Assembly (NCBI GenBank): GCA_964373175.1
Contig: CAYJTP010000001.1
Location: 41,654-105,653 of the forward strand
Length of the DNA: 64,000 nucleotides
Direction of reading: 5' to 3'
Origin: an uncultured Planctomycetales bacterium
GTDB lineage: Bacteria > Omnitrophota > Gorgyraeia > Aquiviventales > Aquiviventaceae
The notes under the pieces are model-generated. The model made no database searches and had not been told where the DNA came from. It worked only from the letters and a program-made list of their open reading frames with translations. Made by a program: the position numbers and the translations under genes. Below, piece after piece: positions 20,680-54,416 of this stretch. Position 1 is the stretch's first letter; the number at the start of each line of letters is the position of its first letter.

Positions 20680-20681
20680 CC

Positions 20682-22510: not shown

Positions 22511-22530
22511 GAACGCGCTTCTCCTTTTTT

Positions 22531-41014: not shown

Positions 41015-42323
41015 TGGACGCTCGGCTCCCTCCATCGTTTGGAATCAGTTGGACGGCCACCCTTCTGCCATCGGGATAGACCCACTCGTAAGGAACGAAG
41101 AAGGGTGCGGCGCTCCGGGCCTTGATATCCGCCTGTTCACCCCTCAAACCAAAATCGGCCAGGGGGCCCACGACATGAAATGCTGCGACCTCTTGCGATT
41201 CGAGCAAGGTACGCTTGCTGTTCGCCTGCCGAACACACATCTTCACCGTGTAGAATTGGGGGAGCAGGGGAACAGCGCGGAAACGACAACCGATCACGTC
41301 GTCCCCCTCCATGGCATTCAGAAGCTGTCCATCGAGAGTCATGTTCGCAGCAAAGATTTCACCGAATCCGCTGTTAATCGAGATCCAGACGTAGGGTTTC
41401 TCCACCCTCTGCCGCGCAAAGATGTGCACGGCAATATCGATGTCGTCTCCCGGATGAAAGATCGTCGTTGGCTGACCCTTCGCGTTCCTCAACACGACCC
41501 GCCTCACTTGGATGACTCCCAGGCCTTGGGTCGCGAGTGAACCTTCGGTGACAGCGGAAAGATACGCCGCCACCGTCTCCTCCGGGGAGCCGACGTCCCG
41601 CAGTTGTCCGCCATCCAGCCAGATCGTCCGATCACAGAGACTCTCGATGGCCCCCATGTTGTGGCTGACGAAGAGGACGGTCCGACCCTCGCTGGCGACG
41701 TTGCCCATCCTTCCCAGACACTTCTTCTGGAACGCCGCGTCTCCTACAGCCAGCACTTCATCAACCAAGAGGATCTCCGGCTCCAAGTGGGCGGCGACCG
41801 CGAAAGCCAGTCGCACGTACATGCCGCTCGAGTAATGCTTCACCGGGGTATCCAGGAACCTCTCCACCTCGGAAAAGGCGACAATCGCATCGAATTTGCG
41901 CGTGATCTCCGCTGTTCTCATCCCCAAGATGGCGCCGTTCAAGAACACGTTCTCCCGACCCGTCAATTCTGGGTGGAACCCAGTCCCCACCTCCAACAAC
42001 GACCCCACTCGCCCCCGGACCGCTGCGAATCCCTCCGTGGGTTCTGTGATGCGGGAGAGGAGTTTCAGCAACGTGGTCTTGCCTGCTCCGTTGCGGCCGA
42101 TCACCCCCATCACCTCGCCCGGCCTGACCTCGAAGGAGACATCCTTCAGGGCCCAGATCATCCCACTGTCCGAGGCTCGGGAACAGGAAGGCGATCTTCT
42201 CAAGCGTCGAAAGGGAGCGTTCCAGGCCTCCGTCAAGGTGTCTCGAAGCGTGCGGTAGCGCTCCGGCTGACCGATGCGGTAGCGCTTGCTGAGATTCTTG
42301 ACGTCGATGGCGACATGGGTCAT
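41004..42323 (-). CDS. wzt: ABC transporter ATP-binding protein Wzt (O-polysaccharide/teichoic-type exporter) with C-terminal carbohydrate-binding-like extension
   Basis: 439 aa. Walker A GRNGAGKTT, signature YSSGMYVRLAF, Walker B LLVDE, then a ~180-aa extra C-terminal beta-rich domain. Confidence 0.85.
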   Translation of the reverse strand: MTHVAIDVKNLSKRYRIGQPERYRTLRDTLTEAWNAPFRRLRRSPSCSRASDSGMIWALKDVSFEVRPGEVMGVIGRNGAGKTTLLKLLSRITEPTEGFAAVRGRVGSLLEVGTGFHPELTGRENVFLNGAILGMRTAEITRKFDAIVAFSEVERFLDTPVKHYSSGMYVRLAFAVAAHLEPEILLVDEVLAVGDAAFQKKCLGRMGNVASEGRTVLFVSHNMGAIESLCDRTIWLDGGQLRDVGSPEETVAAYLSAVTEGSLATQGLGVIQVRRVVLRNAKGQPTTIFHPGDDIDIAVHIFARQRVEKPYVWISINSGFGEIFAANMTLDGQLLNAMEGDDVIGCRFRAVPLLPQFYTVKMCVRQANSKRTLLESQEVAAFHVVGPLADFGLRGEQADIKARSAAPFFVPYEWVYPDGRRVAVQLIPNDGGSRASNGA

Positions 42324-42326
42324 GGC

Positions 42327-43214
42327 CTACACCACATCAGCAAACGTCTTCTCCATGCGACGAAAGTACACGACCCCACCTGCGAGGAGCACGGCCACCG
42401 CGAACGCCGATACGAGAACCAGTGGTCCAGGGCTTCCCGTCTTGCCCAGCAGGGCCCAACGAAATCCTTCCACGACACCGGCCATCGGATTCAGCCCATA
42501 CAGAATGCGCCAGGATTCCGGAACGAGACTGCTTGGATACGCGATCGGCGTGGCAAACAGCCAGACCTGGGCCAGAAACGGAATCGTATAGCGGACGTCC
42601 CGGTACTTCACATTCATCGCCGACAGCCAGAGACCCACGGAGAGAGCCGTGGCAATGGCCAATCCGATGAACAGGGGCGTCAACCAGATCGCCGCTGTAG
42701 GAACGATCCCGTAATAGAGCATCATGCCGATCAAGACCACGAAGGCAACGCCAAAATCCACCAACCCGGCCAGAACCGCAGCGAGGGGGATGATCAGGCG
42801 CGGAAAATAGATCTTCTTGATCAGGTGTTGGTTGGCGATCAGGCTGTTTCCCGACTCCGTGAGCGCATGGGCAAAGAGCTGCCACGGGACCAGGGCCGCG
42901 TACGCGAAAATCGGGTACGGGATTCCATCAGATGGCACCTTGGCCAATCGACCAAAAAAGATGCTGAAGACGACCATCGTGAGAAACGGCTGCAGGATGG
43001 CCCACGCCGCTCCGAGCGCCGTCTGTTTATAGCGCACCTTGATATCCCGCCAGATCAGGAAATACAACAACTCGCGGTATTCCCAGAGCTCCTTCAGCTG
43101 GAGGGAGACGAAGCCCTTGGTCGGCTGAATCACCACGACGGGGACCGGCACCGATGGCACGGAAAGGAGATCCGCCTCCGGCAACGGGTGTGCAATGTCC
43201 GTGATGTGGGACAT
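42327..43214 (-). CDS. wzm: ABC-2 type transporter permease Wzm
   Basis: 295 aa, 6 TM helices, ABC2_membrane pattern (LWEYRELLYFLIWRDIKVRYKQTALG). Confidence 0.85.
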   Translation of the reverse strand: MSHITDIAHPLPEADLLSVPSVPVPVVVIQPTKGFVSLQLKELWEYRELLYFLIWRDIKVRYKQTALGAAWAILQPFLTMVVFSIFFGRLAKVPSDGIPYPIFAYAALVPWQLFAHALTESGNSLIANQHLIKKIYFPRLIIPLAAVLAGLVDFGVAFVVLIGMMLYYGIVPTAAIWLTPLFIGLAIATALSVGLWLSAMNVKYRDVRYTIPFLAQVWLFATPIAYPSSLVPESWRILYGLNPMAGVVEGFRWALLGKTGSPGPLVLVSAFAVAVLLAGGVVYFRRMEKTFADVV

Positions 43215-44078
43215 CTACCGTGGTGGGCTCTTCGACCGCCGATTCGATCCAAGGGGCAACAGCGGTTTCTCGTCTACTCGGTTCAGACGATACCGTATGG
43301 CCTGGCTCACATACTGCCGAAACCGAATATACCACTGCTTCAGGTCAGCAGGAGCGCGATCCCCGTAGTTCAGCTGTTGGACGGAAGGCTGGGTGTGATC
43401 GATTCCCACCCCTCCTTCCGTGGTCACGGTATAGAGCAGCGACATCATGGCGCTGCCATCACAGCGTCCGAAACAGGCGTACATGGTGGGGGAGGCTACC
43501 CCAAGCAGGCGATCCTCTAGAGCCAGCCAATAGGTCCCAAACGGGGCGATCTCTGCGCGACCGGCCTGGACCACGTGACCTCGAGGGTCGAAGATTTCAT
43601 ACTGATAAGACGCCACGCGCGCATAGTCGTTCTTCGTACTGATATTCATCAGGACGAGACCGCAGGATTGGACGGTCGAATCGACAAAGTGTACGGAAAA
43701 GCCGTGGTAGCGATGGGGTCTCCCTGAATGGTTGATCGAGGAGGGAGGGGTATACACCACATGGGTAAATCCCCCGCCTCTGAGATAGTAGTGATACCGG
43801 TCTTTCTTGTAGGGCCGGTCGCTCAGGAGGATGGTTTCAACCAAGCCCTTCTGTCCGTCTCTGATGGAGGGTTGCAAGAACGCGTGATCCAGTTCAATGG
43901 AGGCAACACCCTGGAGAGGCTCCCCGTCATTCCACACGTGTTCCTTGAAGACCCGACCCTGCTCATCACGAGCCCGAAGAAGGACCATGTATCGCTGCCC
44001 TTCATCACACCGCAAGACGGTTCTCATCCCCTCATGGATCTGGAAGTTGAATGGGAGCCAATCCTTGGAAATTTCCAT
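43215..44078 (-). CDS. hypothetical protein, no recognisable family
   Basis: 287 aa, soluble, no motifs recognised. Tightly coupled (1-nt gap) to wzm. Confidence 0.5.
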   Translation of the reverse strand: MEISKDWLPFNFQIHEGMRTVLRCDEGQRYMVLLRARDEQGRVFKEHVWNDGEPLQGVASIELDHAFLQPSIRDGQKGLVETILLSDRPYKKDRYHYYLRGGGFTHVVYTPPSSINHSGRPHRYHGFSVHFVDSTVQSCGLVLMNISTKNDYARVASYQYEIFDPRGHVVQAGRAEIAPFGTYWLALEDRLLGVASPTMYACFGRCDGSAMMSLLYTVTTEGGVGIDHTQPSVQQLNYGDRAPADLKQWYIRFRQYVSQAIRYRLNRVDEKPLLPLGSNRRSKSPPR

Positions 44079-44080
44079 CC

Positions 44081-44881
44081 TTAGAGGTGGTGGAGATTAA
44101 AATCGTCTGTCGTCTGGGTCAGGAGCCACCCTTTCCCCTTCGGACCTCGGACGAAGTACAGGTAGCGCGACGACGTCTTGAATTCCACCTCAAACAGCTC
44201 GCCCAGGTCGACCCAGAGACTGGGAACGAACGCGACGTCTTGGGTCACGTACCTCCATGGGGCTGACCCTTCTTTCAGGCCGAACGTATAGGTCAACCGT
44301 GTTGGCCTGTGCCGGTACGCATCCCAAGGGGCACACACGATGGCGGTCACGCGCGCTCCGTCCTTGGGCACCCAAAAGATCCGTTCCCGCGCATAGTTAT
44401 TGCGCGAGGCACTGGAGTGCACACAATCAAGCGTCCGCCGGATACGCCTGCTCTGATAACATGCGTAAAAGATGGGTGCCAGCCGGTGATGGTCCACGCA
44501 AAAACCTGCTGGATACCCCTCACGCTCCGTCCAGGCAAAACACACACCGCGGAGATCCGACTTGTTCAGCAGGGGTTCGAGCGACAGGCACTGGCTCTGA
44601 TGGTAGGGGAGGCGGACCCGAATCAGGTGGGCCGAACCCTTATCGAGGACCATGGCGTGAAACAGCATGGGTTCCCGAAATGTCTCATCGCAGACTGCAT
44701 GGCAGTAGGTGCATAACAGATGGGTGTCAAACCCATCGGCACACAACACGGGGAGACAGGAGCTGCCTCGGGCCACGTACCGACTCACCGCCCCAAAGAG
44801 ATCGCTTCCCAGTGATTCGACCTGGATTCGATCCGCGTCGTTGAGCTCCGTTGATCGCTGCATCGAGATGGTGGTCATCTT
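44081..44881 (-). CDS. hypothetical protein (Cys/His-rich), no recognisable family
   Basis: Start at MTTISMQRS, 1 nt after the upstream stop. Contains CxxC pairs (LLCTYCHAVCDETF). The track ORF extends 46 codons further. Confidence 0.45.
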   Translation of the reverse strand, partial: KMTTISMQRSTELNDADRIQVESLGSDLFGAVSRYVARGSSCLPVLCADGFDTHLLCTYCHAVCDETFREPMLFHAMVLDKGSAHLIRVRLPYHQSQCLSLEPLLNKSDLRGVCFAWTEREGYPAGFCVDHHRLAPIFYACYQSRRIRRTLDCVHSSASRNNYARERIFWVPKDGARVTAIVCAPWDAYRHRPTRLTYTFGLKEGSAPWRYVTQDVAFVPSLWVDLGELFEVEFKTSSRYLYFVRGPKGKGWLLTQTTDDFNLHHL

Positions 44882-45840
44882 TTCACGGCACCTCTGCTGA
44901 ACGCTTTTGCCCACGCGACACACGCCTTCGCGCGTTGGGGCCCGAGAACCCAATCGAGGCTCCTTCGTGCCCTGTGCTTCAACGTCGAACTGTAGAAATA
45001 GGTGATCTGATACCTCCAAAAAACCAGCCGCAGAGCTCTGGCTTTGGCCACAGCATGGTTCGAGCCCTGCAGGTTCAGTGCAGGTCTTTCGACCGGAGGG
45101 GCGGCCTTCGCCAACACCCGTAAGCCTCTTCCTTCATCCCCCACAACACAAGAAGAAAATCCAACCTGTCCCAGCAGGGACAAAAACGATGGGCGTGTGA
45201 AGAGCCGTAAATGCTGGGCCCCGAGGAACTCGCCCAGGTGGTGGCGAGGCTTCCAGGCATTGGGGACTTCAAGATACAACCGTCCGTCCGGTCTCAAGAG
45301 AGTCTTCACCCGCGTCAGAAAGGCGCAGGGGTCAGAGACATGCTCCAACACCCGCAAGGCGGCCACCAGATCAAATCTCCCTGGAGGCAGGGACGCCTCC
45401 TCGAAAGTCCCTCGCCGGATATCCAACCCGTACGCCCGTTGCCCAAACCGGGCAAAGGCGGAGGGCTCGATGCCGCACGTCTCCCATCCCAGCCGATGAA
45501 ATCTCAACAGGAAGGAACCCTCGGAGCAACCAATGTCCAGCACCCTCCCCCTCTGCCTGAGATGGGGAGCCGCCCAGTGAAAATCTTCCTCGGCCTGACG
45601 CCCCTTCCACCACAGGTGCTCCTCACTTGGGGTGTCTTCCGCCCGCAACGTTTCGTAGAGTCGTGTTAACTCCCCAGGCTCCAGTTGCGGCCGAGAGTAC
45701 ACCAATCCGCAGGTCTGACACATCACCTTCACTACGCGGGCCCGTTCCAGCCCCAATCGCTGGAGGTACGCATCCCGGCGCAGCACGTAGACCGGCACCG
45801 CCGCCCAGGAACCACACACAAGACACGGGACGTCCTTCAT
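44875..45840 (-). CDS. SAM-dependent methyltransferase with N-terminal Cys4 zinc-binding domain (Methyltransf_13-like)
   Basis: CLVCGS...CQTCGLVYSRP ribbon; VLDIGCSEGSFLL motif I. Start at the ATG in an ATGA overlap. Confidence 0.75.
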   Translation of the reverse strand: MKDVPCLVCGSWAAVPVYVLRRDAYLQRLGLERARVVKVMCQTCGLVYSRPQLEPGELTRLYETLRAEDTPSEEHLWWKGRQAEEDFHWAAPHLRQRGRVLDIGCSEGSFLLRFHRLGWETCGIEPSAFARFGQRAYGLDIRRGTFEEASLPPGRFDLVAALRVLEHVSDPCAFLTRVKTLLRPDGRLYLEVPNAWKPRHHLGEFLGAQHLRLFTRPSFLSLLGQVGFSSCVVGDEGRGLRVLAKAAPPVERPALNLQGSNHAVAKARALRLVFWRYQITYFYSSTLKHRARRSLDWVLGPQRAKACVAWAKAFSRGAVKR

Positions 45841-46541
45841 CGGCTGTATTCTCCTGAGCCACACAATTGTAGGAGAGCCTGCGCGAGCCTCAATCCATCC
45901 TCGTCATGGAGATCGACCTGGCTACTCACATCCCGGACTGGAACTAACCCGATTCGATCTCCAAGCCGTCTACCAGATCGAACGATGTCGGCTCGAATGG
46001 CGGTCGCCATCCCCGCCAACTCCTTATAGGTAGGTTGCACCTGATGACGCGTATGATCTCCCTCCTCAGGGTGGAGCTGCTCGAGGCTGTTTTCCGAAAA
46101 CCGCCAGAAGCGATGGCGCTCCTCCCGAGCGGCAAAGACCGTATCCAATCCTTCTGTCTGAAGCACCTCGACGACATCGTCGATCAGCCCTGGTGGCCGG
46201 ATCGGATGCGTCACCTCGAGCAAGACCACAATATCCACCGGGTAAGAGTCCTCTTGCTCGAGCCACTGGAGGCAATGTTGGAGGACCTGAATCATCGGCA
46301 CCCCTGCAGCCGCGAGGTGGGGTGGTCGGAAAAAGGGGACCTCCGTCCCGTAACCCCTGGCCACCTCCGCGACCACGGCGCTATCCGTAGAGACGAGAAT
46401 CCGGTCCAGACATGTCGCCTGACGTGCGGCCTCAATCGTGTAGGTGAGCACCGGTTTTCCACACAGCAGGGACTCTGGTGTCATCTGGGCCTCCGGGTCA
46501 CTGCCCCGGAGCGGGATGATCGCTACCGTGTTCAGATGCAT
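45837..46541 (-). CDS. NeuA-family cytidylyltransferase (CMP-ulosonic acid synthetase-like), divergent
   Basis: VAIIPLRGS...GKPVLTYTIEAARQ...ILVSTDS...EVPFFRP follows the CMP-NeuAc synthetase pattern but lacks the GSKG loop. Confidence 0.65.
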   Translation of the reverse strand: MHLNTVAIIPLRGSDPEAQMTPESLLCGKPVLTYTIEAARQATCLDRILVSTDSAVVAEVARGYGTEVPFFRPPHLAAAGVPMIQVLQHCLQWLEQEDSYPVDIVVLLEVTHPIRPPGLIDDVVEVLQTEGLDTVFAAREERHRFWRFSENSLEQLHPEEGDHTRHQVQPTYKELAGMATAIRADIVRSGRRLGDRIGLVPVRDVSSQVDLHDEDGLRLAQALLQLCGSGEYSR

Positions 46542-47920
46542 GATCGCCCTTCCAGCCATCGTGCGAGAAATGCCAGCGTGCGATCAACCGCCCCGCTCTC
46601 CTGTTGGATCAGGCGAGCCCCGGCAGTCCGAATCGCCTGAAGTGGAGCGTGGCCGGTCAGAACGTCAACCGCTCGGCTCGCCAGAGTCATGGGTGAATCC
46701 ACCTCAAGCCCTGGCCAAGCCTCCAACAACTGCGTAGTGGCGGTTCGCCAAAGATTCATATGGGGGCCAAAGAGGGGTGGCACCCCGTGCGCTAATGGCT
46801 CTAGGGGGTTATGGCCCCCTCTCCGTTCATTGATTGGGACAAGACTGGACCCAATAACGGCCACATCGGCCGCACCATAGATCGTCCGGAGCTCCCCAAA
46901 CGTATCCACTACTAACGCGTCGTACCGCCCCAACTCTGGCGTAGGATGTTGGGCCACCGCGGTTCGCGTCATGACCCTGAAGCCATGTTCCCTGACCCGT
47001 CCCACCATTGCGGGAACGTCGTGAAGCCAGCGTGGCGCGATGATCAACCGGCTGCTCGGAAGGCTCGCCCGGATCAGGCTGAAGGCCTCAAGCATGGTTC
47101 CAATTTCTCCTGGAGGCAGGCTCCCAGCAATCATGACGCGATCCTCTTCTCGAAGGCCGAGGCTACCCCGAAGCGCTTGACGCTCCGCTGGAGAGAGTTG
47201 GAGATGGCTCAGATCCCCTTCCAATTTCCCTGTGACGGCCAACCGATCGGTCGGCACCCCCAGCGAACGAAAGGCGTCGTAATCGGCTTCGCTTTGGACC
47301 GCGATGGCATCGAGCGTGCGGTGGACGCCCAAGGCGAGCGAACGTCGCAAACACGGGTTCGCCACGTGCACATTCCGAGTAAGCACGGCGTTCACCAGCA
47401 CCGTTGTCACCCCTCGCCGCTTCGCATGCTTGAGGAGCGTTGGGAAATAGGCATTCGCCACAAACACCAACGCCTTAGGATTCAACCGGCGGACCACGCG
47501 CGAGACTGGAAGTGAGGTATCCCAAGGTGGGAATGCCACCCGCCCTGGACCATACCACTGGCGGAGCAGCCCGTGTGCATCGTACGAATCGGTGGAGAAA
47601 TAACACGGGTCTCCTCCCGCTTCCAATTGGCGAATCAGGGACTGCGCCATGATCACCTCACCGCCAGAATTCATATGGATCCACAGCGGTTTGGTCCCAT
47701 CATACTGTTCGAGCTCTGCCGGCAACCACCCCCACTGATCCCAAAACCGACGGACCATCAGATCGTGCACAGCGCGACGAGGGTGCAGCAGCACGCGCTT
47801 CGTCAAGGTAATTGGGAAATACGCATACGCCAATGCTGCATAGGGCATCTGATAGCGAGCCCACGTGGTCCAGCGCTCCTGGGCGCTGCGGAACTCACCG
47901 GTCGAGGGATTCCCCATCAC
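46532..47920 (-). CDS. 3-deoxy-D-manno-octulosonic-acid transferase-like glycosyltransferase (GT30, KdtA/WaaA family)
   Basis: 462 aa. N-terminal LWIHMNSGGEV (WaaA HxxSxGE-like) and a C-terminal GT-B domain (VVDTFGELRTIYGAADVAVIGSSL). Confidence 0.7.
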   Translation of the reverse strand: MMGNPSTGEFRSAQERWTTWARYQMPYAALAYAYFPITLTKRVLLHPRRAVHDLMVRRFWDQWGWLPAELEQYDGTKPLWIHMNSGGEVIMAQSLIRQLEAGGDPCYFSTDSYDAHGLLRQWYGPGRVAFPPWDTSLPVSRVVRRLNPKALVFVANAYFPTLLKHAKRRGVTTVLVNAVLTRNVHVANPCLRRSLALGVHRTLDAIAVQSEADYDAFRSLGVPTDRLAVTGKLEGDLSHLQLSPAERQALRGSLGLREEDRVMIAGSLPPGEIGTMLEAFSLIRASLPSSRLIIAPRWLHDVPAMVGRVREHGFRVMTRTAVAQHPTPELGRYDALVVDTFGELRTIYGAADVAVIGSSLVPINERRGGHNPLEPLAHGVPPLFGPHMNLWRTATTQLLEAWPGLEVDSPMTLASRAVDVLTGHAPLQAIRTAGARLIQQESGAVDRTLAFLARWLEGRSCI

Positions 47921-49698
47921 GTCCGCAAGATGTATTCGACCAACCGGAACGGAAAGTCATCCTTCACGTGCAGGAGTTCAAGCCTAGCCCGTTCAAACAT
48001 CGATAACCAGCGCGCCGTCGTGGTTGGCAAGCCCTGCCACGTCAGGGGATGGATGATGTACTGGTAAAACAGCGGATGGATGCGGTCCGGAAACGGCAGT
48101 GCCTTAACCTCTTCATCCGACAGGCGGTTGAATTCCCCGACAAAGATATACCGCCCGGGGAACTGCCGCTTGAGCCCCGCAAAGAGCTGGACGACCGGCT
48201 CTTCGCCATCTCGCAGGAACTCATGGAAGGACATGATGCCGTTGAAGGCACCAACCTCCTTGACCTCGCTGGCAAACGTCTCTGGTCGGGTGAAATCGCC
48301 CTTGACCAGCCGAATGCGGTCAGTCAATCCGGCCTCTGCTACACGGCGCCGGGCCTCCTCAAGCGCCTCCTCTGAGATGTCGATCCCGATACCCCGAAGA
48401 GCCGGATCCAACCGACAGAAGGCAATGAGCGTTTCGCCAGATCCGCAGCCGAGATCAGCGAACGTCCGCACACCCCGCTTGGTCAGCTCTGACACGACCC
48501 AGGGATAGTTTGATTTGCCCGTGTAGTAACTGCCGCGGGCCAGCCAATCCCCTCGGCGGACGAAACCCACGCCGTAGCGCTTTTCCTCGCGTAGTGCGGG
48601 CACGAGTTCGTAGAGCAGACACGCATAGGCGCCGACCGCTCCAAAGGACATGGCCAGCACGGGATCGGTGAAGAGCCACTCGCCGCGGTCGGTGAGGGCA
48701 AATCGGTCCCCTTCTTTCTGCAGCACGCGGTCGGCAAAGGCGAGGAAGTGCAGCACGCCATCCAAGAGGTACGTGTTGAGTCCACATTCCGCGGCCAATT
48801 CTTTGACGGTCTTGGGACCGCTGCGGCGCAGCACCTCGAAGACACCGGTCTCGTGGAGAGCAAACAGGATAAAGGCCCTTGCGTACCCATTCCGAATGTT
48901 CTGAGACCACGTTTTCACATCGTCCCCAAGCCAACCCTCTTTCAGATCAGTGCCGCCGGCGCCATTGCCAGACAGTAGCGGGGCAGCGGGTGCCTCCGGA
49001 TAACGCAACAGCTGTTCCGCCAGCCAGAAATCCAAGGGGGTATGGATATCGATTGACGTGCGAAAATCATTCGTTTCCACAATGTCCACGCGCGAGCCCA
49101 CACGCTGGCCTGCTCGGATGAGCGACGCTCTGGTGGCGCAGGCCACGCCGGTATCCTCCCGGTAGAGGTACGCCTTGCGGCTCTGCCGGGAGGTATAGGT
49201 CGCTAATTCTGGCGCAAGCCGCTGGAAACCTTCCGGCGTCCGATGCCAGTAGTTTTTGTGCGTCTTGTACCCTGAGAAGACGGTTTCCAACTCGGGATGA
49301 GCCGCAAGCCGATGGACGCACTCCCGGATTATGTCCGGCGTCCGGAACAGGTCCGTCGTCTGCAGGTACACGACGATGTCAAACGTGATTCCCCGCAGTT
49401 GTTCGTACGTGACGAGGGCGTGCTGGAGCATGGGCTCGGCAGGTACAGAGTCCTCAGCGAGCTCGCGCGGACGAAGAAACGGGACCTCAGCTCCAGCGTC
49501 GCGGGCGATGCGGGCGACACGCTCATCCTCGGTGCTCACGAGCACGACATCGCACACCCCGGAGACCTTCGCGTGCTCGATGGTATGGACTAGGAGGGGT
49601 TTGCCGCCGATCGGCAGCAGGTTCTTACCCGGCAAGCCCTTTGAACCGGCCCGTGCCCCGATGATCGCGATTGTCCTTGGCAGCGCGGCTGGCATCAC
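47917..49698 (-). CDS. fusion: NeuA-family cytidylyltransferase + class I SAM O-methyltransferase (with dimerisation/wHTH-like linker)
   Basis: 593 aa. IAIIGARAGSKGLPGKNLLPIGGKPLLVHTIEHA...VPFLRP (CMP-sugar synthetase). C-terminal FADLGCGSGETL motif I, preceded by a winged-helix-like segment as in plant-type O-MTs. Confidence 0.75.
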   Translation of the reverse strand: MMPAALPRTIAIIGARAGSKGLPGKNLLPIGGKPLLVHTIEHAKVSGVCDVVLVSTEDERVARIARDAGAEVPFLRPRELAEDSVPAEPMLQHALVTYEQLRGITFDIVVYLQTTDLFRTPDIIRECVHRLAAHPELETVFSGYKTHKNYWHRTPEGFQRLAPELATYTSRQSRKAYLYREDTGVACATRASLIRAGQRVGSRVDIVETNDFRTSIDIHTPLDFWLAEQLLRYPEAPAAPLLSGNGAGGTDLKEGWLGDDVKTWSQNIRNGYARAFILFALHETGVFEVLRRSGPKTVKELAAECGLNTYLLDGVLHFLAFADRVLQKEGDRFALTDRGEWLFTDPVLAMSFGAVGAYACLLYELVPALREEKRYGVGFVRRGDWLARGSYYTGKSNYPWVVSELTKRGVRTFADLGCGSGETLIAFCRLDPALRGIGIDISEEALEEARRRVAEAGLTDRIRLVKGDFTRPETFASEVKEVGAFNGIMSFHEFLRDGEEPVVQLFAGLKRQFPGRYIFVGEFNRLSDEEVKALPFPDRIHPLFYQYIIHPLTWQGLPTTTARWLSMFERARLELLHVKDDFPFRLVEYILRT

Positions 49699-51356
49699 CC
49701 CTCCAGGGAACTCACGGACGCAGCGGTGGGGACGTGGGGTCGCTCATGGATAAGCTCGATGACGCGCGCCACACGCTGTGCCCGCCGCTCGTCACGGCCT
49801 TGGTGGATCCCGTGATAGTGGTACACGCTGGCGAGCGGCGTGTACACGATCTGGTGGCCCTCCGCCAGCACCTTCTTTGCCCAATCTCGATCTTCAACAC
49901 CGTTGAGCTGCTCGTCGAACGGGATTCGTTGCCACACGGCCTTGCAGATCATCGAGTTCGCGTTATGGAAGAAGTAGTCCTGCCCATGTTGCATGCGCCG
50001 CTCTGCTCCAAATGTCGTCCATAAGTCCCGTTTATCAAAATGACTCGTATCGGGCATCGGCTCTTGTCGGCCATAGGCAGCCGCCACAAATGGGAGTCGG
50101 CCATAGCCCGTCGCCCGTTCGCATGCGAAGCCCTCGAGCCACCGGTCGTGGACCGGGATGCAGTGGGCCGACAGGTTGACCACCCATGGGCAGTGCGCGG
50201 CGTCAATGCCCCGATTGAGGGCGCGGCCGAAACTGAACTCATCATCACGCATGGTGAGGACGCGGCACTCGAACTGGCGCGCGACCTCTACCGACTCATC
50301 CGACGAGTCGTTGTCCACGACGATGATCTCCTTCGGCGGCCGCTGCTGGTTGAGGAGGGCCCACAGCGAGCGACGCAGCCATCCGGCTTCGTTCTTGGTC
50401 CGAATGACCACGGAAATCTCCAGTGGCAACCCCGAACTCCTCACAGTCCACGGAACCACCATCCCGAAGGTCATGGGCTCGCCGGGCTCGCGGTCATACA
50501 GCAACTGCGCGCCCTCCAGGCGAGCCGTCATGGCAGGCGTGAAGCCTTTCAGCTTAGGCACCATCTCAACGTCGCTCGAGGCCAAACGACTGCCGGCTCG
50601 TAGGGACCGTCGGGCAACTAGGCTTGGCGCAAACGCCAGCGGCGATTCGCCCTGGGGAACCGCAGCCAGCTGTGCTGCTCCTTGCTGAAACGTGGAAACC
50701 AGCGACTCGTGTTCCCGCACGTAGGTGACCAGCCGCGCGAACTCATGTGGATAGAGGCTTCCCTGGTGCTCAGGTCCTCCAAGGCTTCGGTTCAAGGTCA
50801 ATCCCTTCAAAATCGTCTCGGCTCCGGCCAATGCCCCGTTCAGGGCTCGCCACGGCTCTGGAAACTCATCAGAATAGCCCACGCCCCATCCGAGCTCACG
50901 AACCTGTTGTCTGAGTCTGAACCACTCCGACAGCCGCTCGCCGCGGTTCATGACGATGACGACCAGATGGACTAACCGCTCGTCAACCGGCCCCAGGTCG
51001 AGGTCAACTGTAGCATTGTTGTCGATGAGCAGCAGCATCGGCTTCTGGCAGGTTCGAAGCGCCAGGAGGGACTGGAAGCCCTGAAGGTCTCTGGGACGGA
51101 GGAGATAGCCTGCCGCATCACGGAGTAGCGGCTGATGCAGATCGTCGGAGCTCGAGATTTCGAGGTAGGGATCAAGGTCACAGGCCCTCGCGCTCTGGCA
51201 TAGCTGCTGTGCCACATGGTTCGAAACCCATGGTCGCCGTGGGATGACCACACCAGAAACCTTGCACTCCACAGCCCACTCGATGAGTCGTAGTCCTCGT
51301 TCAGGCGCCTGCTGCTCAATCATCAGTTCAGCGAGGAGTTGCCGCGGTGTGCTCAT
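49695..51356 (-). CDS. fusion: degenerate NeuB-like (TIM-barrel) domain + GT2 glycosyltransferase
   Basis: C-terminal ISVVIRTKNEAGWLRRSLWALLNQQ...IIVVDNDSSDES is GT2. The N-terminal ~300 aa has NeuB-like spacing (GWGVGYSDEF versus NeuB IGYSDHT) but lacks the His. Start at the ATG in an ATGA overlap (MSTPRQL). Confidence 0.6.
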   Translation of the reverse strand: MSTPRQLLAELMIEQQAPERGLRLIEWAVECKVSGVVIPRRPWVSNHVAQQLCQSARACDLDPYLEISSSDDLHQPLLRDAAGYLLRPRDLQGFQSLLALRTCQKPMLLLIDNNATVDLDLGPVDERLVHLVVIVMNRGERLSEWFRLRQQVRELGWGVGYSDEFPEPWRALNGALAGAETILKGLTLNRSLGGPEHQGSLYPHEFARLVTYVREHESLVSTFQQGAAQLAAVPQGESPLAFAPSLVARRSLRAGSRLASSDVEMVPKLKGFTPAMTARLEGAQLLYDREPGEPMTFGMVVPWTVRSSGLPLEISVVIRTKNEAGWLRRSLWALLNQQRPPKEIIVVDNDSSDESVEVARQFECRVLTMRDDEFSFGRALNRGIDAAHCPWVVNLSAHCIPVHDRWLEGFACERATGYGRLPFVAAAYGRQEPMPDTSHFDKRDLWTTFGAERRMQHGQDYFFHNANSMICKAVWQRIPFDEQLNGVEDRDWAKKVLAEGHQIVYTPLASVYHYHGIHQGRDERRAQRVARVIELIHERPHVPTAASVSSLEG

Positions 51357-52483
51357 CGATCCCACTCGGTCGCCATCGCACAGAGCACCCGTTCGTGCGT
51401 GGTGGAATGATCCAGGCCTAACTGACGAAGCCATGGCCGGCAGACGAAACGCGTGAAGGCCTCAGCGGCCTGCGCGAGGTTCATCATCCGCCCGTTCAAC
51501 GTCGGATGCCCGCTCCATCGGGCATGGCGGAGGAACACCGTCTCCAAGGGACTGTAGATGATGTCGTAGCAGACAGTGGTACGAGGCAACCGACTGCAGC
51601 TCACCAGCGAGACCTCCTGATTACGCTGGATGTCTCCGACGGACTTCCAATACCAGTCCTCACGGAACACATCCTCTGCTCCCGGGGTGCCAGCAAGGAC
51701 TTCAGGATGGGCCGGCCCAAGCGCGGAATATGGCTCCAAGCAAGTCCACCGACCGTCCCGCAACTTTCGGATACCCCCCTGTCCCTTTACCGTCGCGTTG
51801 ATGACCAGATCCACTTGAGGCAGGTGGTGGACGATCATTCCTTCATCGATTGCGGTCAACCGTCCGGACCGCGTCCCTGCTAGACGCTCCACTAGATGCT
51901 GCGCCTGGGGTTGCGTTCGATTCGCAATGATCAGCTCGCCCTGCAGCATCTGGTCCCAGAGATAGAAGGCCAGCGCTTGAGCCGCACCCCCTGCTCCCAG
52001 TAACAGCACACGCGCACGGGAGAGATCTGAGAAGAGGGGCTGGCTGCCGCCAGCAGCCGGCGAAGTCAAGGCGCGCAGCCCGCCCAGCCCATCGGTGTTG
52101 TAGCCTACAAGCCGCCCATCTGCTCCCCGGGCGATGACGTTGACGGCGCCGATACGTTCAGCCAGTAGGTCGAGCTCGTCCAGCAAAGGGATCACGGCCA
52201 CCTTGTAGGGCACTGTCACGCTGCCGCCCAAGAAGGCGTCACTGCACCGCAGTAGCTGGATGACCTGAGACAACTGATCCTGCGAGACGTCGAAGGGAAC
52301 GTAGACCGCTTCAAGGCCAAGCGCGGCAAATGCCGCGTTCCATAGGCGTGGGCTCTTCGCATACGTCGAGGGCGTATCGCCCAGGATCGCGGCGATGCGC
52401 TTGCCCTGCAGTGCCGCCACGTCAAGCGGGTTGGTCACCAGCCGCTGGAGTTCCTCAAGCCACGTGTCCTGGGTGGTCGTCAT
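51353..52483 (-). CDS. shikimate 5-dehydrogenase (AroE) family oxidoreductase homolog
   Basis: 376 aa. N-terminal substrate-binding pattern (GDTPSTYAKSPRLWNAAF, NVTVPYK) and the glycine-rich NAD(P) site VLLLGAGGAAQA. Confidence 0.7.
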   Translation of the reverse strand: MTTTQDTWLEELQRLVTNPLDVAALQGKRIAAILGDTPSTYAKSPRLWNAAFAALGLEAVYVPFDVSQDQLSQVIQLLRCSDAFLGGSVTVPYKVAVIPLLDELDLLAERIGAVNVIARGADGRLVGYNTDGLGGLRALTSPAAGGSQPLFSDLSRARVLLLGAGGAAQALAFYLWDQMLQGELIIANRTQPQAQHLVERLAGTRSGRLTAIDEGMIVHHLPQVDLVINATVKGQGGIRKLRDGRWTCLEPYSALGPAHPEVLAGTPGAEDVFREDWYWKSVGDIQRNQEVSLVSCSRLPRTTVCYDIIYSPLETVFLRHARWSGHPTLNGRMMNLAQAAEAFTRFVCRPWLRQLGLDHSTTHERVLCAMATEWDR

Positions 52484-53325
52484 GCAACCCTCACCAGCCC
52501 AGCCGTCAGCCTCCGTCCAACAGCGGGAGCCATCGTTTCGAGCTGCTGCATGAGCTGCCCAAACGCCCCGTAGTCTAACGCCTGCAGGGGATCCACGGCT
52601 GCCTGCTCCGGTGTTGGATGGACGTCAATCAAGATCCCATCGGCACCAATCGCCAGGGCCGCGCGCGCCACGGGGGCGACATACGGCCGTCGAAACGTTG
52701 CGTGACTCGGATCAACCAAGATGGGGAGGTGCGTGTACTCTTGCGCCGCGGGAACCACCTGGAGGTCCACGATGAAGCGCGACGTAGGCGCATGGGTATG
52801 AGGCGCGACGATGCCGCGCTCGCACAAAACAACCTGTGAATTGCCGCCAGCGAGGAGATACTCAGCGGCCCCGAGCCAGTCGCGCAAGCTGGCTCCAAAG
52901 TGGCGCTTGAGGAGAACGGGTTTGCCTATTTTCGAAACGGCTTCAAGGAGCGGAACGTTCTGCATGTTGCGCGAGCCGATCTGCAGCATGTCGGCATAGG
53001 TGGCCACCACTTCCACCACCCGCACATCCATCACTTCCGTGACGACCGGTAACCCTGCGGCGTCCCCGGCTTCGCGCAGGTACCGCAGGCCTTCTTCACG
53101 CAATTCAAACATTGTGGTGTTCCGATACGGAAATGTGAGCGGCTTGAACGCCCCGCCACGCAACATCTGCGCCCCAAGCTCCTTGACGCGGTGGGCAATC
53201 TCACGGATCTGCGCGCGACTCTCGACCACACAAGGGCCAGCAATCACCGTGAAGGTCTCAGCGCCTATCGCGTGACCGCCAACCGTCACGATCGTCTTGT
53301 GGGTTGGGGTTCGCCGGGCTGCCAA
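52480..53325 (-). CDS. DAHP-synthase-I-beta / Kdo8P-synthase family aldolase, divergent active-site motif; start uncertain
   Basis: KTIVTVGGHAIGAETFTVIAGPCVVES...LRGGAFKPLTFPY (canonical KPRTSPY)...PILVDPSH. The track ORF (to 53517) would overlap the upstream gene by 154 nt; TTG at 53325 is provisionally chosen. Confidence 0.6.
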   Translation of the reverse strand: MAARRTPTHKTIVTVGGHAIGAETFTVIAGPCVVESRAQIREIAHRVKELGAQMLRGGAFKPLTFPYRNTTMFELREEGLRYLREAGDAAGLPVVTEVMDVRVVEVVATYADMLQIGSRNMQNVPLLEAVSKIGKPVLLKRHFGASLRDWLGAAEYLLAGGNSQVVLCERGIVAPHTHAPTSRFIVDLQVVPAAQEYTHLPILVDPSHATFRRPYVAPVARAALAIGADGILIDVHPTPEQAAVDPLQALDYGAFGQLMQQLETMAPAVGRRLTAGLVRVA

Positions 53326-53363
53326 GGGAAGGTTGTGCTCTAGGTCACTGGGTGAGATGTCTT

Positions 53364-54416
53364 TCAGTCCGCTCCTCCTCCGCTCCTGGCTAGCGCTGGC
53401 GAGAGGTTGACCACGCGTCGTTGCGCCGACGACTGGTAAATGGCTTCCATGACCTCGGCCAGCCGCACACCGCTGTCCACGACATTGGCTTCCGGGGTCG
53501 TTCGCGTCTCGACGCATCGCAGGAACGACTCCAGTTCGAGCTTCACCTGATCCACCGGGCCTAGGCTCGGCAGGTTCAGCCGAATACCCCCCTCATTGAC
53601 CAACTGCCATACCCCCTCGCGCAACGCATGGTGCACGCGAAACAACTCTACGGTCCCAGTCTCGACATCCGCTTCGATGGTCGCCTTTGACCCACAGACC
53701 ACGAGCTCTTTGGTGGTCTTGGCGTGTGGAACGACACGGTCGTTCCACCGACCAGGCTGAATATAGCCGGACTCCACGTGAGCAAGCACCCCATTGGGGT
53801 AGGTAAGCAGCACGACTGACAGATCTTCCAACCCACGATTCAAGTGATCGCGGGTCACGGCGAAGACCTCTTCAGGCTCGGCCGCCAGCAACCAGTTGAT
53901 CAAGTCAATGAAGTGGATGGCATCCGTGTGCGTGACGCCCACGTCGGTCCGCGCACGCTTAAATCCCATGAACCGTCCTGAGAAATAGCGGAGGCCGCCC
54001 AGCGTCCCCAGCGCGAGCTGCTGCTTGATCCACTGCGCGATCGGATGGACACGATAGTAGTAGCCGACCTGGACGATCCGGCCGGTCTGCGCAACCAGCT
54101 CGCTGAGTTCCCGCGCCTCGGCCGCCGTCATCGTCATTGGCTTCTCAATGAACGTATCCTTGCCAGCGGTCAGTGCCTCACGGCAGAGCATTCCGTGCGT
54201 ATCTGTCGCCGTCACGATGTCCACCACGTCCACTGTTGGCAACCAGGATCGGAAGTCAACACCAACCCGCTCACGCGGAACCCCACATGCCACAGCCCAC
54301 GTGTGCCGCTTGGGCAACACCTCTGCGACCCACAACGACTCTCGGTAGCCAAGCTCAAGCCACGCCTTCAGGTGGACCTGGCCGAAGCCGCCTAACCCAA
54401 TCTGGAGCACGTTCAT
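53364..54416 (-). CDS. Gfo/Idh/MocA-family oxidoreductase
   Basis: MNVLQIGLGGFGQVHL, EKPMT motif, 350 aa. Confidence 0.8.
   Translation of the reverse strand: MNVLQIGLGGFGQVHLKAWLELGYRESLWVAEVLPKRHTWAVACGVPRERVGVDFRSWLPTVDVVDIVTATDTHGMLCREALTAGKDTFIEKPMTMTAAEARELSELVAQTGRIVQVGYYYRVHPIAQWIKQQLALGTLGGLRYFSGRFMGFKRARTDVGVTHTDAIHFIDLINWLLAAEPEEVFAVTRDHLNRGLEDLSVVLLTYPNGVLAHVESGYIQPGRWNDRVVPHAKTTKELVVCGSKATIEADVETGTVELFRVHHALREGVWQLVNEGGIRLNLPSLGPVDQVKLELESFLRCVETRTTPEANVVDSGVRLAEVMEAIYQSSAQRRVVNLSPALARSGGGAD

Follow-up and report, generated by a model that had tools for sequence, protein, structure and literature searches.

Eight consecutive minus-strand ORFs, placed exactly at 44875-54416 by an ORF check of the 64,000-nucleotide stretch analysed (hereafter, the window), may on balance be read as a block that builds and tailors a non-canonical 3-deoxy-2-ulosonic acid, activates it with CMP and transfers it to the surface glycan of the locus. 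Judged from sequence, this acid is probably new and C3-methylated. No published description of the pathway was found. The condensing enzyme, called here ALD*, is a re-purposed enzyme of aromatic amino-acid metabolism, and belongs to an unstudied family present in many phyla, including SAR11 and Prochlorococcus of the ocean.

The gene block and its aldolase

The eight ORFs listed in the earlier note are real, as are both gene fusions and the KPLTFPY motif, and Pfam backs each domain call (Table 1). Family scores were read against NCBIfam cut-offs, structural relatives were sought in the PDB. Several ORFs of the block feature 4-nt stop/start overlaps, and a sequence scan of the block found no promoter or terminator signals above chance. 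A syntenic copy, 97% identical, resides on an independent contig (L001). ALD* probably starts near 53325, because its homologues measure 281–297 aa, and the N-terminus of the long ORF overlaps the Gfo gene.

Table 1. Genes of the block and of its surroundings, with positions in the window
Feature	Position	Strand	Domain evidence
Gfo1, Gfo/Idh/MocA NAD(P) oxidoreductase, first gene of the trio	53364..54416	-	Pfam GFO_IDH_MocA
ALD*, PEP aldolase derived from type I-beta DAHP synthase, KPLTFPY	52480..53325 (ORF to 53517)	-	DAHP_synth_1, E = 1e-59
AroE-like NADP oxidoreductase, putative ring ketoreductase on a pyranose ulosonate	51353..52483	-	Shikimate_dh_N / Shikimate_DH
Pseudo-NeuB/SAF (N-terminal) and GT2-like GT-A (C-terminal ~245 aa) fusion, 579 aa	49695..51434	-	weak NeuB C-terminal part + Glycos_transf_2
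CT-A (residues ~1-245) and MppJ/MrsA/ApyS-like methyltransferase (~255-593) fusion, 593 aa	47917..49698	-	CTP_transf_3 + Methyltransf_2-type
GT30 (WaaA-like), distinct non-WaaA clade, putative ulosonyl transferase	46532..47920	-	Glycos_transf_N
CT-B, divergent CTP_transf_3 paralogue	45837..46559	-	weak CTP_transf_3
MT_A, class I SAM methyltransferase, N-terminal 4-Cys zinc ribbon (CxxC...CxxC)	44875..45864	-	Methyltransf_23
Wzm (context)	42327-43214	-	
Wzt with C-terminal carbohydrate-binding domain Wzt_C (context)	41004-42323	-	
WbdD-like methyltransferase-kinase	17310-19397		

Alignments place ALD* in a compact and well-conserved clade within the type I-beta DAHP synthases. The clade stands well apart, its one 50%-identity representative scoring 412 bits, all others 309 bits at most. 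GGAFKPRTSPY of the type I-beta enzymes reads GGAFKPLTFPY in ALD*. Of the 120 database clusters nearest to ALD*, 117 carry the motif KPLTFPY, and all 82 genomic loci carry KP[LM][TS]FPY; shared by relatives and by the copy on the independent contig, it is not a sequencing accident. The label of DAHP/Kdo8P-synthase variant given in the earlier note can be made more precise: ALD* is an offshoot of the DAHP I-beta enzymes (~55% identity to that of A. pernix), with KdsA as a distant relative.

Residue roles were assigned from the T. maritima complex, in which VLRGGAFKPRT contributes its first Arg and its Lys to PEP binding, its second Arg and its Thr to E4P binding (PMC6362186). In this region ALD* loses the second Arg alone, and the Thr stays. 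The PEP site (R, K, GSR, K, ERG-R) is kept, and the Arg contacting the acceptor phosphate is lost, changed to Leu or Met, with the next-but-one Ser changed to Phe, in 82/82 loci. ALD* features two 3-residue loop insertions (RNTTMFE and ERGIVAPHTHAPTS), and a second Arg (ERGIRT) is likewise lost within a 3-residue insertion. The metal site of ALD* retains three of the four ligands, Cys, His and the last Asp; the fourth, Glu, is replaced by Asp in the sub-clade of the window; in half of the clade the metal Cys is changed to Asn.

These losses, along with the absence of a KdsC-like HAD phosphatase from all 82 loci, make it unlikely that ALD* uses a phosphorylated aldose to yield a DAHP- or Kdo8P-like product, with other residues holding the phosphate and a phosphatase encoded elsewhere, as in a classical KdsA/KdsC/KdsB/WaaA-type pathway built from unusual sequences. 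A phosphorylated acceptor might still be bound otherwise: ALD* exceeds the NCBIfam DAHP-synthase cut-offs, the Thr of KPRT is kept, and basic residues following DPSH (RR/KR/WR) are conserved in the clade. P. furiosus-type I-beta enzymes are promiscuous for C4 and C5 sugar phosphates, which also speaks for this alternative.

Genomic context of the Gfo, ALD* and AroE-like trio

The 82 ALD* loci surveyed span more than 10 phyla and lie in glycan or flagellar islands. AroE-like genes flank ALD* in 68–71 loci, Gfo genes in 46–69, GT2-like genes in 55, CTP_transf_3 genes in 55–61. The conserved core is made by Gfo, ALD* and AroE-like, usually accompanied by GT2-like, CT-A and CT-B; a compact marine cassette reads CT-A / GT2::CT-B / Gfo / ALD* / AroE-like. 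Contrary to the earlier note, the block is not centred on GT30, which is an add-on, found at 4 of the 82 loci.

None of the contexts examined placed the trio among shikimate genes. The scenario that the earlier note had set against itself, in which ordinary aroG and aroE genes and a housekeeping lipid A Kdo transferase would reside in a glycan locus by chance, is highly improbable. Automated annotation does name the aldolase 3-deoxy-7-phosphoheptulonate synthase, and GT30 a Kdo transferase. However, synteny with cytidylyltransferases and glycosyltransferases is kept in more than 10 phyla, ALD* is devoid of the E4P-phosphate Arg, and the 4-nt overlaps couple the genes of the block tightly. Both AroE-like (167.6 vs the aroE cut-off of 200.2) and GT30 (184 bits vs WaaA cut-offs of 363–617) fall under the equivalog thresholds, and an identity gap separates the GT30 clade (33 clusters at ≥47%) from WaaA-like proteins (≤34%). 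Conserved glycan synteny and the loss of Arg sustain the view of a module for the synthesis and transfer of a sugar acid of the ulosonic type, rather than for aromatic amino-acid metabolism.

In the alignment, AroE-like conserves the catalytic Lys/Asp, the substrate-binding Asn and Gln, and the Tyr of DIIYSP, which we take to bind the carboxylate as in AroE. The SxS motif is changed to AxS, and window-type proteins carry an insertion of ~55 aa. The closest solved structure to Gfo1 is 7BVJ (E = 3e-16), and its top NCBIfam match, UDP-GlcNAc 3-dehydrogenase, is far under cut-off.

In one lineage (L025/27/30/32/38) no CT or GT genes accompany the trio, which is flanked by surE-pcm and nlpD-like genes, hence its product may not serve as a glycan precursor in every case. 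This housekeeping context fits a different, possible though rather doubtful, division of labour, in which the trio makes a small acid (quinate/shikimate-like or keto-deoxy), used as a substituent or free metabolite, and CT-A::methyltransferase, GT2-like/CT-B and GT30 act on a nonulosonic acid that one of the NeuB enzymes of the window produces. AroE-like keeps nearly all the shikimate-binding residues, and the GT2-like/CT-B/CT-A::methyltransferase unit and the GT30 clade are found also in loci featuring NeuB genes and no ALD* (L085, L087). The window holds two bona fide NeuB genes, so CT-A and GT30 might conceivably act on an acid of NeuB origin. Against this division, each of the two NeuB genes is already paired with a cytidylyltransferase and a putative NulO transferase. 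Moreover, 46 loci, the compact marine cassette included, couple ALD* to a canonical CT-A with no bona fide NeuB within ~10 kb, ALD* being the sole PEP-aldolase there, and no dehydroquinate synthase or dehydratase homologues occur among the annotated recurrent neighbour families.

Proposed activation, methylation, transfer and export

CT-A is a canonical CMP-ulosonate synthetase domain with the P-loop ARAGSKGLPGKN, and CT-B has lost the basic residues of the P-loop (IPLRGSDPE...). The cassettes conserve CT-B, and in loci of Prochlorococcus, SAR11 and Marinomonas it forms the C-terminal part of a fusion with the GT2-like protein. The NeuB-like domain is degenerate, as proposed earlier, since its metal ligands are lost (both Mn-binding His are gone); in the GT2-like domain DXD is replaced by S-A-H. 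GT2-like, pseudo-NeuB/SAF and CT-B are a conserved accessory unit, outside the route outlined below.

The fusion of CT-A to a methyltransferase recurs in distant taxa (SAR11 loci, L083 and L085). The fused domain had been called an O-methyltransferase, but its closest characterised relatives, MppJ, MrsA, SgvM and ApyS (function of the latter from PMC11117315), are all alpha-keto-acid beta-carbon C-methyltransferases. The fused domain scores best against ApyS (110.7 bits) and ketoarginine methyltransferase (96.7 bits); in the PDB its best match is MppJ, whose metal ligands H243/D244/H295 align with H/E/H of the fused domain. These relationships make C3-methylation likelier than O-methylation. 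The His of the H-E pair presumably matches also the catalytic His of related O-methyltransferases, and C-methylation is therefore rated as probable only. O-methylation could be carried out by the zinc-ribbon methyltransferase MT_A. Homologues of MT_A, a variable accessory gene, were found in 10 of the 82 loci, and this extra methyltransferase has no place in the route outlined below.

GT30 is not the housekeeping WaaA, being far under the WaaA cut-offs and in a separate clade. It keeps the S-x-GE, PR and GGHNxLEP motifs of 2XCI, which we assume to be involved in CMP binding and catalysis, as in WaaA. Members of the clade adjoin cytidylyltransferases in glycan loci, and GT30 has no lipid A genes nearby. 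In the window, L001, L083 and L084, GT30 has CT-A on one side and CT-B on the other. The two remaining NulO modules of the window each come with a putative NulO transferase, which leaves GT30 to the ALD* module as a putative ulosonyl transferase.

Chain termination by WbdD, which caps E. coli O9a with methyl phosphate, is classical, and WbbB (GT99) adds a beta-Kdo cap in Klebsiella O12. Similarly to systems in which such caps are read by Wzt, the window encodes Wzm, a Wzt with Wzt_C and a candidate ulosonate transferase, which differs from WbbB in being GT30, not GT99. The suggestion that the acid is a terminal residue of the ABC-exported polymer is weakened, because a WbdD-like methyltransferase-kinase is also encoded, so that the cap may be methyl phosphate, and because the GT30 clade occurs also in Wzx/MurJ-type and Wza-type loci.

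Proposed route and known ulosonate pathways

In the route that we favour, ALD* would condense PEP, for which the site is kept, with an aldose or aldehyde; the acceptor is probably unphosphorylated, in which case no phosphatase step would be needed, as with bacterial NeuB. Gfo1 and AroE-like may couple an oxidation to a reduction of the pyranose ring, which mimics quinate and shikimate in being a six-membered ring with a carboxylate; most likely, the configuration would be inverted at ulosonate C4, which corresponds to C3 of shikimate. By homology, the methyltransferase fused to CT-A would place a methyl group on C3, which is the beta-carbon when the alpha-keto acid is in its open-chain form, and the CT-A domain would form the CMP-sugar. 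At the inner membrane, GT30 would transfer this sugar onto a glycan intermediate carried on a lipid, and Wzm/Wzt would then export the polymer.

Among known enzymes, type I-beta DAHP synthases (1VS1 A. pernix, 1ZCO/4C1K P. furiosus, 1RZM T. maritima) match ALD* over the whole (beta/alpha)8 barrel (~50–55% identity, E = 6e-80). They differ in the Arg of KPRT and the later Ser, which are Leu and Phe in ALD*, in lacking the two 3-residue insertions, and in serving the shikimate pathway rather than glycan synthesis. AroE-like shares with shikimate dehydrogenases the fold, the Lys/Asp dyad, Asn, Gln and Tyr, but adjoins ALD* rather than aro genes, and is under the aroE cut-off; 5-ketofructose reductase (7COK), of the same family, shows that reduction of a keto-sugar is possible. 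The fused methyltransferase resembles MppJ, MrsA, SgvM and ApyS in having a dimerisation domain and a Rossmann architecture, and in its best PDB and NCBIfam matches. It differs in being fused to a CMP-ulosonate synthetase and in its score, far under the equivalog cut-off (110.7 vs 400). If it acts on a 3-deoxy-2-ulosonic acid, as presumed, that substrate would be new to the family.

The KdsA/KdsC/KdsB/WaaA pathway has the same logic: an aldol condensation with PEP is followed by activation with CMP, through a CTP_transf_3 enzyme, and by transfer through a GT30 enzyme. ALD*, however, is distantly related to KdsA (E ~ 1e-20), the block has no KdsC-like phosphatase, its GT30 groups apart from WaaA, and it also includes two oxidoreductases and a methyltransferase. 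The nonulosonic acid pathways (NeuB/PseI/LegI with NeuA/PseF/LegF) share the unphosphorylated aldose acceptor, inferred for ALD*, the dispensable phosphatase and the CMP-sugar. They reside in the same kinds of loci (flagellin glycosylation islands, O-antigen or capsule loci), and NeuB-type loci, too, include GT2-like/CT-B units and members of the GT30 clade. In contrast to these pathways, the condensing enzyme of the block comes from the DAHP synthase lineage, not from NeuB.

Layout of the block and of the surrounding glycan locus

The window is a single very long glycan locus, encoded on the minus strand (~59% GC). The earlier note had placed a module of eight genes, centred on a GT30 transferase, at 44875-54416; eight consecutive ORFs occupy exactly this interval, and all the domains named at the time, both fusions included, were borne out by Pfam. 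Genes overlap by 4 nt at 47917/47920, 49695/49698 and 52480/52483. A scan of the 41-58 kb region of the window revealed no promoter-like or terminator-like signals exceeding chance, and the block is therefore viewed as part of a larger operon. Gene content and order are the same in L001, a contig obtained in an unrelated sequencing run, which is 97% identical at the nucleotide level. Among named genomes, the closest match to the aldolase of the block is found in an uncultured Planctomycetia MAG (79%).

Upstream of the block reside two UDP-sugar dehydrogenases, an epimerase, a DegT aminotransferase, a UXS-like SDR, a WbpB-like Gfo protein and an LbH acetyltransferase. Downstream, two ORFs conserved in L001, which gave no match in Pfam or NCBIfam, separate the block from Wzm, which is followed by a Wzt protein with a Wzt_C domain. 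Two NeuB-based modules are located farther downstream, each equipped with a cytidylyltransferase of its own and with a putative NulO transferase of the TIGR04396/BFO_1060 type; the label of third ulosonic-acid module, assigned to the block in the earlier note, is therefore apt. The TIGR04396 ("surface carbohydrate biosynthesis protein") and BFO_1060 glycosyltransferase family proteins probably transfer the two acids which these NeuB enzymes make. A methyltransferase-kinase fusion is built like WbdD, which caps the chains of ABC-exported O-antigens with methyl phosphate. This protein offers an alternative chain terminator for the polymer of the window, and the cap recognised by the Wzt_C domain may be its product.

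Additional features mark the locus. A cytidylyltransferase-aminotransferase fusion adjoins a full-length NeuB. A set encoding a short NeuB devoid of SAF, an SDR, a Gfo/Idh/MocA protein, a CTP_transf_3 protein and an AP_endonuc_2 TIM barrel recurs in the window and in the comparison locus L085, where a HAD phosphatase is part of it; the set is apparently a distinct sugar-acid module, of the kind using phosphorylated substrates. L001 features ~800 extra bp, encoding a TylF-family O-methyltransferase, between the Zn-ribbon methyltransferase gene and the next ORF. The insertion is absent from the window, and is strain-level variation in methylation. In L084, another comparison locus, a TylF gene follows CT-B, the small divergent CTP_transf_3 paralogue.

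Features of the window and of comparison loci
Feature	Sequence	Coordinates	Strand	Description
Ulosonic-acid block	window	44875-54416	minus	eight consecutive ORFs
Aldolase	window	52480-53517	minus	DAHP-synthase-derived, KPLTFPY
ORF	window	43215-44078	minus	287 aa
ORF	window	44081-44869	minus	~262 aa
Wzt_C domain	window	41004-42323		
CTP_transf_3 cytidylyltransferase::class-III aminotransferase	window	30096-32093	minus	665 aa
Full-length NeuB	window	29003-30061		
TIGR04396 and BFO_1060 family proteins	window	26033-27487, 19399-20706	minus	probable transferases
Short-NeuB set	window	21614-26036	minus	
WbdD-like fusion	window	17310-19397	minus	695 aa, SAM methyltransferase + APH-type kinase
Site lacking the TylF gene	window	44833-44896		
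TylF-family O-methyltransferase	L001	15034-15830		
Short-NeuB set	L085	12473-17356		with HAD phosphatase
GT2::CT-B and NeuB::cytidylyltransferase fusions	L087	2430-3812, 5166-6950		adjoin GT30-clade gene

The aldolase and its genomic neighbourhood

The aldolase contains a DAHP_synth_1 barrel (Pfam E = 1.4e-59), which aligns throughout its length with solved type I-beta DAHP synthases, as those of A. pernix (1VS1, E = 5.7e-80), P. furiosus and T. maritima. Kdo8P synthases are distant (~1e-20). The NCBIfam cut-offs for DAHP synthase (NF006421 and TIGR01361) are exceeded. In DAHP synthases, Cys, His, Glu and Asp act as metal ligands, and PEP is bound by GSR, a Lys, the Arg of ERG, and the first Arg and the Lys of the motif VLRGGAFKPRT, whose other Arg (at the phosphate) and Thr contact erythrose 4-phosphate in the complex from T. 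maritima (PMC6362186). At the sequence level, the aldolase kept the PEP and metal sites, and lost the acceptor-phosphate Arg. All the PEP- and metal-site motifs are found (LRGGAFK, GSRN, KRH, ERG, GPC, DPSH, AAVD). Cys, His and the last Asp are retained as metal ligands, and Glu is conservatively changed to Asp (IDVHP) in the sub-clade of the window. The KPR(T/S) motif, which carries the acceptor-phosphate Arg, reads KPLTFPY, and is directly followed by a 3-residue insertion. Similarly, ERGIRTFE is changed to ERGIVAPHTHAPTS, with loss of a second Arg and gain of 3 residues.

The changes are fixed, the altered motif being carried by 117 of the closest 120 clusters (90% identity) and having the form KP[LM][TS]FPY at all 82 genomic loci analyzed. 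When 1.84 billion representatives (50% identity) were searched, a single one (412 bits) stood for the whole clade; all others score 309 bits or less, and single-match KPRTSPY enzymes 274 bits or less. A few more divergent relatives similarly lack the Arg (KPCTFPY, KPLTFPV). No copies were found in the plasmid collection or in viral contigs.

At 54 of the 82 loci (L024, L026, L035, L044, L053 and 49 others), Asn (GPN) occupies the position of the metal-binding Cys (GPC). GPN-type enzymes reside in SAR11, Prochlorococcus, Azospirillum, Marinomonas and Denitromonas; the window enzyme keeps Cys. The Cys/Asn switch likewise divides metal-independent from metal-dependent Kdo8P synthases.

Of the 82 loci, 80 were retrieved by scanning one genome per species, and L001 and L002 were added. 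Neighbours were identified by tblastn with the window proteins, and by clustering all ORFs within ~8-10 kb. The 80 loci are found in Planctomycetia, Omnitrophota, Acidobacteriota, Gemmatimonadota, Chloroflexota, Nitrospirota/Nitrospinota, Actinomycetota and SAR324, as in many SAR11 and Prochlorococcus single-cell genomes, Azospirillum, Marinomonas ostreistagni and Denitromonas iodatirespirans. The aldolase is flanked by an AroE-like protein at 68-71 of the 82 loci, by a Gfo/Idh/MocA oxidoreductase (Gfo1 in the window) at 46-69, by CTP_transf_3 proteins at 55-61 and by a GT2-like protein at 55. NeuB-like proteins (20 loci), the Zn-ribbon methyltransferase (10), cytidylyltransferase-methyltransferase fusions (6, four SAR11-type among them) and GT30 (4) are less frequent neighbours. 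The usual marine gene order is CT-A / GT2::CT-B / Gfo / aldolase / AroE-like, where CT-A denotes the cytidylyltransferase found in the block as part of a fusion; the GT2-CTP_transf_3 fusion was borne out by Pfam. In one Nitrospirota locus the cassette adjoins FlgK, flagellin, CsrA and FliW; elsewhere it is accompanied by Asn-synthase-like amidotransferases, carbamoyltransferases, radical-SAM enzymes and TPR-glycosyltransferases. A flagellin NulO transferase of the Maf type was sought beside the marine cassettes; a 641-aa neighbour recurring there had no Pfam match.

Association with the shikimate pathway was not observed, as the neighbours are cytidylyltransferases, glycosyltransferases and oxidoreductases of glycan or flagellar loci. 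Genomically, the aldolase thus keeps company with two oxidoreductases and CMP-synthetases, and not with aro genes or a phosphatase. A KdsC-like HAD phosphatase was found at none of the 82 loci. An aldolase still acting on a phosphorylated substrate, as its DAHP synthase family scores might suggest, is set against this absence and the loss of the acceptor-phosphate Arg, and seems improbable.

In one lineage (L025, L027, L030, L032, L038) the trio made by the Gfo protein, the aldolase and the AroE-like protein resides by itself, flanked by surE-pcm on one side and by an nlpD-like M23/LysM gene on the other, and neither cytidylyltransferases nor glycosyltransferases were found within 8 kb. The trio is therefore a separable unit, and its product in these microorganisms may be a free metabolite. 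That the trio, in general, makes something other than the CMP-activated sugar is consistent with these loci, yet unlikely: at 46 loci the aldolase is the sole credible PEP-aldolase beside a canonical CMP-synthetase. An alternative entry into the shikimate pathway, in which a 3,7-dideoxy-diulosonate would cyclise to dehydroquinate as in the archaeal route, was set aside, because a cyclase/dehydratase partner is missing and the trio is overwhelmingly linked to cytidylyltransferases.

Source annotations name relatives of the aldolase 3-deoxy-7-phosphoheptulonate synthase, and NCBIfam would name the window enzyme DAHP synthase. The label is likely a systematic misannotation, which affects metabolic reconstructions of MAGs.

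Companion enzymes of the cassette

Motifs VTVPYK, AVNV, YNTDG, DIIYSP and NLAQAAEAF of the AroE-like protein align to 2EGG; the catalytic Lys and Asp, and the shikimate-site Asn, Gln and Tyr, are kept. The protein scores 167.6 bits with TIGR00507, below the AroE equivalog cut-off of 200.2. The SxS motif binding the carboxylate is altered, HSxSP being changed to YAKSP (the first Ser is Ala), and ~55 aa are inserted. Reduction of a keto-sugar by a solved member of the AroE family is exemplified by 5-ketofructose reductase (7COK). Gfo1 gave weak matches only: 7BVJ is the nearest solved relative, and UDP-GlcNAc 3-dehydrogenase, followed by inositol dehydrogenases, the nearest NCBIfam entry.

CT-A, the N-terminal half of a 593-aa fusion, features the canonical basic P-loop (P-A-R-x-G-S-K-G-x-P-x-K-N), which reads IGARAGSKGLPGKN, and the C-terminal acidic motif SIDIHTPLD. 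This P-loop is missing in CT-B (240 aa), where IIPLRGSDPEAQMTPE aligns to IIPARGGSKRIPRKN of NeuA 9FTB and Lys/Arg are replaced by acidic residues; the acidic replacement is conserved in every cassette. The methyltransferase half of the fusion matches ApyS (110.7 bits) and 2-ketoarginine methyltransferase (ketoArg_3Met, 96.7 bits), all other methyltransferase-family matches scoring 35 bits or less. Its best solved relatives are, in order, MppJ, CalO1 (an O-methyltransferase), 8FTR/8FTV, which we take to be SgvM, and MrsA. The H-E...H residues of the window protein fall on H243-D244 and H295 of MppJ, according to a numbering inferred from the D244E and V300E variants seen in PDB sequences. ApyS methylates the beta-carbon of an alpha-keto acid (PMC11117315). 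As scores are below equivalog cut-offs, the domain is assigned at the family level only to MppJ/MrsA-type alpha-keto-acid C-methyltransferases, and C-methylation is putative.

The 579-aa fusion combines an N-terminal NeuB-like and a GT2-like domain. The Mn-binding His residues of NeuB (SDH, EKH) are replaced in the former (SDE, LKG); one or both are lost in most cassette-linked NeuB-like proteins, and a visible reduction of the domain is under way in L083 and L084. The GT2-like domain has a GT-A fold, and the similarity of its confident model (pLDDT 88) is confined to generic GT2 enzymes. DXD, by which GT2 enzymes bind the metal and the diphosphate of the NDP-sugar, has given way to an invariant S-[AG]-H-C-x-P. 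Its family is large and made up of ~225-aa proteins (737 matches, 53-65% identity to the window domain). Loss of DXD and fusion to a CMP-binding-like domain lead us to speculate that a monophosphate is the leaving group of the donor, or that the domain has a role other than transfer. In L087, a locus without the aldolase, GT2::CT-B and NeuB::cytidylyltransferase fusions adjoin a GT30-clade gene; the GT2-like/CT-B pair is therefore regarded as a general companion of ulosonic-acid pathways.

The GT30 protein (PF04413, E = 1.6e-26) was checked for the WaaA motifs S-x-GE, PRH and GGHNxLEP, which are kept relative to A. aeolicus WaaA (2XCI) as HMNSGGE, PRW and GGHNPLEP. Its best score, 183.7 bits against a cut-off of 438, is far below every WaaA equivalog cut-off. 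Homologues split into 33 clusters at 47% identity or more and, after a gap, WaaA-like proteins at 34% or less, some fused to LpxK. Seven members of the close clade were looked up for genomic context. The window, L001, L083 and L084 share the arrangement Gfo-aldolase-AroE-like-GT2-CT-A(-MT)-GT30-CT-B; in L085 and L087 GT30 is accompanied by GT2/CT-B and NeuB-type genes, with no aldolase, and in L088 and L089 it lies among cytidylyltransferases and methyltransferases. The clade thus belongs to O-antigen or capsule loci, in the company of cytidylyltransferases and methyltransferases, and not to a lipid A or LPS-core context. The hypothesis that the block contains ordinary aro and WaaA genes, which automated gene names might evoke, is hardly credible next to the neighbours of both the aldolase and GT30. 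Judging from sequence and context, the clade is a putative surface-glycan CMP-ulosonate transferase family which is not aldolase-specific. It is not tied to one export route either, because export genes differ among its loci (Wzx-like, MurJ-like, Wza/Wzi; Wzm/Wzt in the window).

A candidate ulosonic-acid pathway

In the pathway proposed for the block, PEP and an unphosphorylated aldose would be condensed to a 3-deoxy-2-ulosonate, and Gfo1 and the AroE-like protein would oxidise and then re-reduce a ring carbon. This may be C4, the carbon onto which the AroE-reactive C3 falls if a pyranose ulosonate is superposed on shikimate. The methyltransferase domain would methylate C3 of the open-chain keto acid, CT-A would make the CMP-sugar, and GT30 would transfer it. 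On balance, synthesis, CMP-activation and transfer of a new ulosonic acid is the probable function of the block. More tentatively, the aldolase may represent a third class of bacterial ulosonic-acid synthases, derived from DAHP synthase and not from NeuB or KdsA, which uses an unphosphorylated acceptor and makes, with Gfo and AroE-like proteins, an undescribed acidic sugar, CMP-activated and displayed on surfaces or flagella in many uncultured phyla, SAR11 and Prochlorococcus. The sugar is possibly a heptulosonic or Dha-like acid, in the window additionally 3-C-methyl-branched. A Dha-specific assignment was rejected, as no feature of the sequences determines how many carbons the sugar has.

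Neither the cassette nor the clades of the aldolase and of GT30 were found to be described in the published literature searched. If the third-class hypothesis is true, enzymes building bacterial 2-keto-3-deoxy sugar acids have a third evolutionary origin, and the bacterial glycome includes a new, possibly C3-branched, monosaccharide. Members of the GT30 clade would be the first relatives of Kdo transferases to work on something other than lipid A and plant RG-II. New substrate classes would be represented by the CMP-synthetase with its fused alpha-keto-acid C-methyltransferase, and by the use of an AroE-family enzyme in sugar chemistry. In single-cell genomes of SAR11 and Prochlorococcus the core cassette sits in variable regions devoted to surface glycans, and it is also found in Acidobacteriota, Nitrospirota, Chloroflexota, Omnitrophota and Planctomycetes; the sugar could thus play a part in how phages and grazers recognise very abundant microbes. 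Labels of 3-deoxy-7-phosphoheptulonate synthase probably inflate the aromatic amino-acid biosynthesis predicted in metagenome-assembled genomes. Wide distribution and the likely systematic misannotation both raise the interest of the block. The activated form and the origin of 3-deoxy-heptulosaric acid (Dha) of plants and green algae were unresolved in a 2012 review (PMC3355719), and a prokaryotic route derived from DAHP synthase would be a testable lead.

The overall logic of the block, PEP aldolase, CMP-synthetase and transferase, is that of the Kdo and nonulosonic-acid pathways. What sets it apart are its predicted components: a synthase derived from DAHP synthase, a sugar reductase of the AroE family, a CMP-synthetase fused to a keto-acid C-methyltransferase and a non-WaaA GT30.
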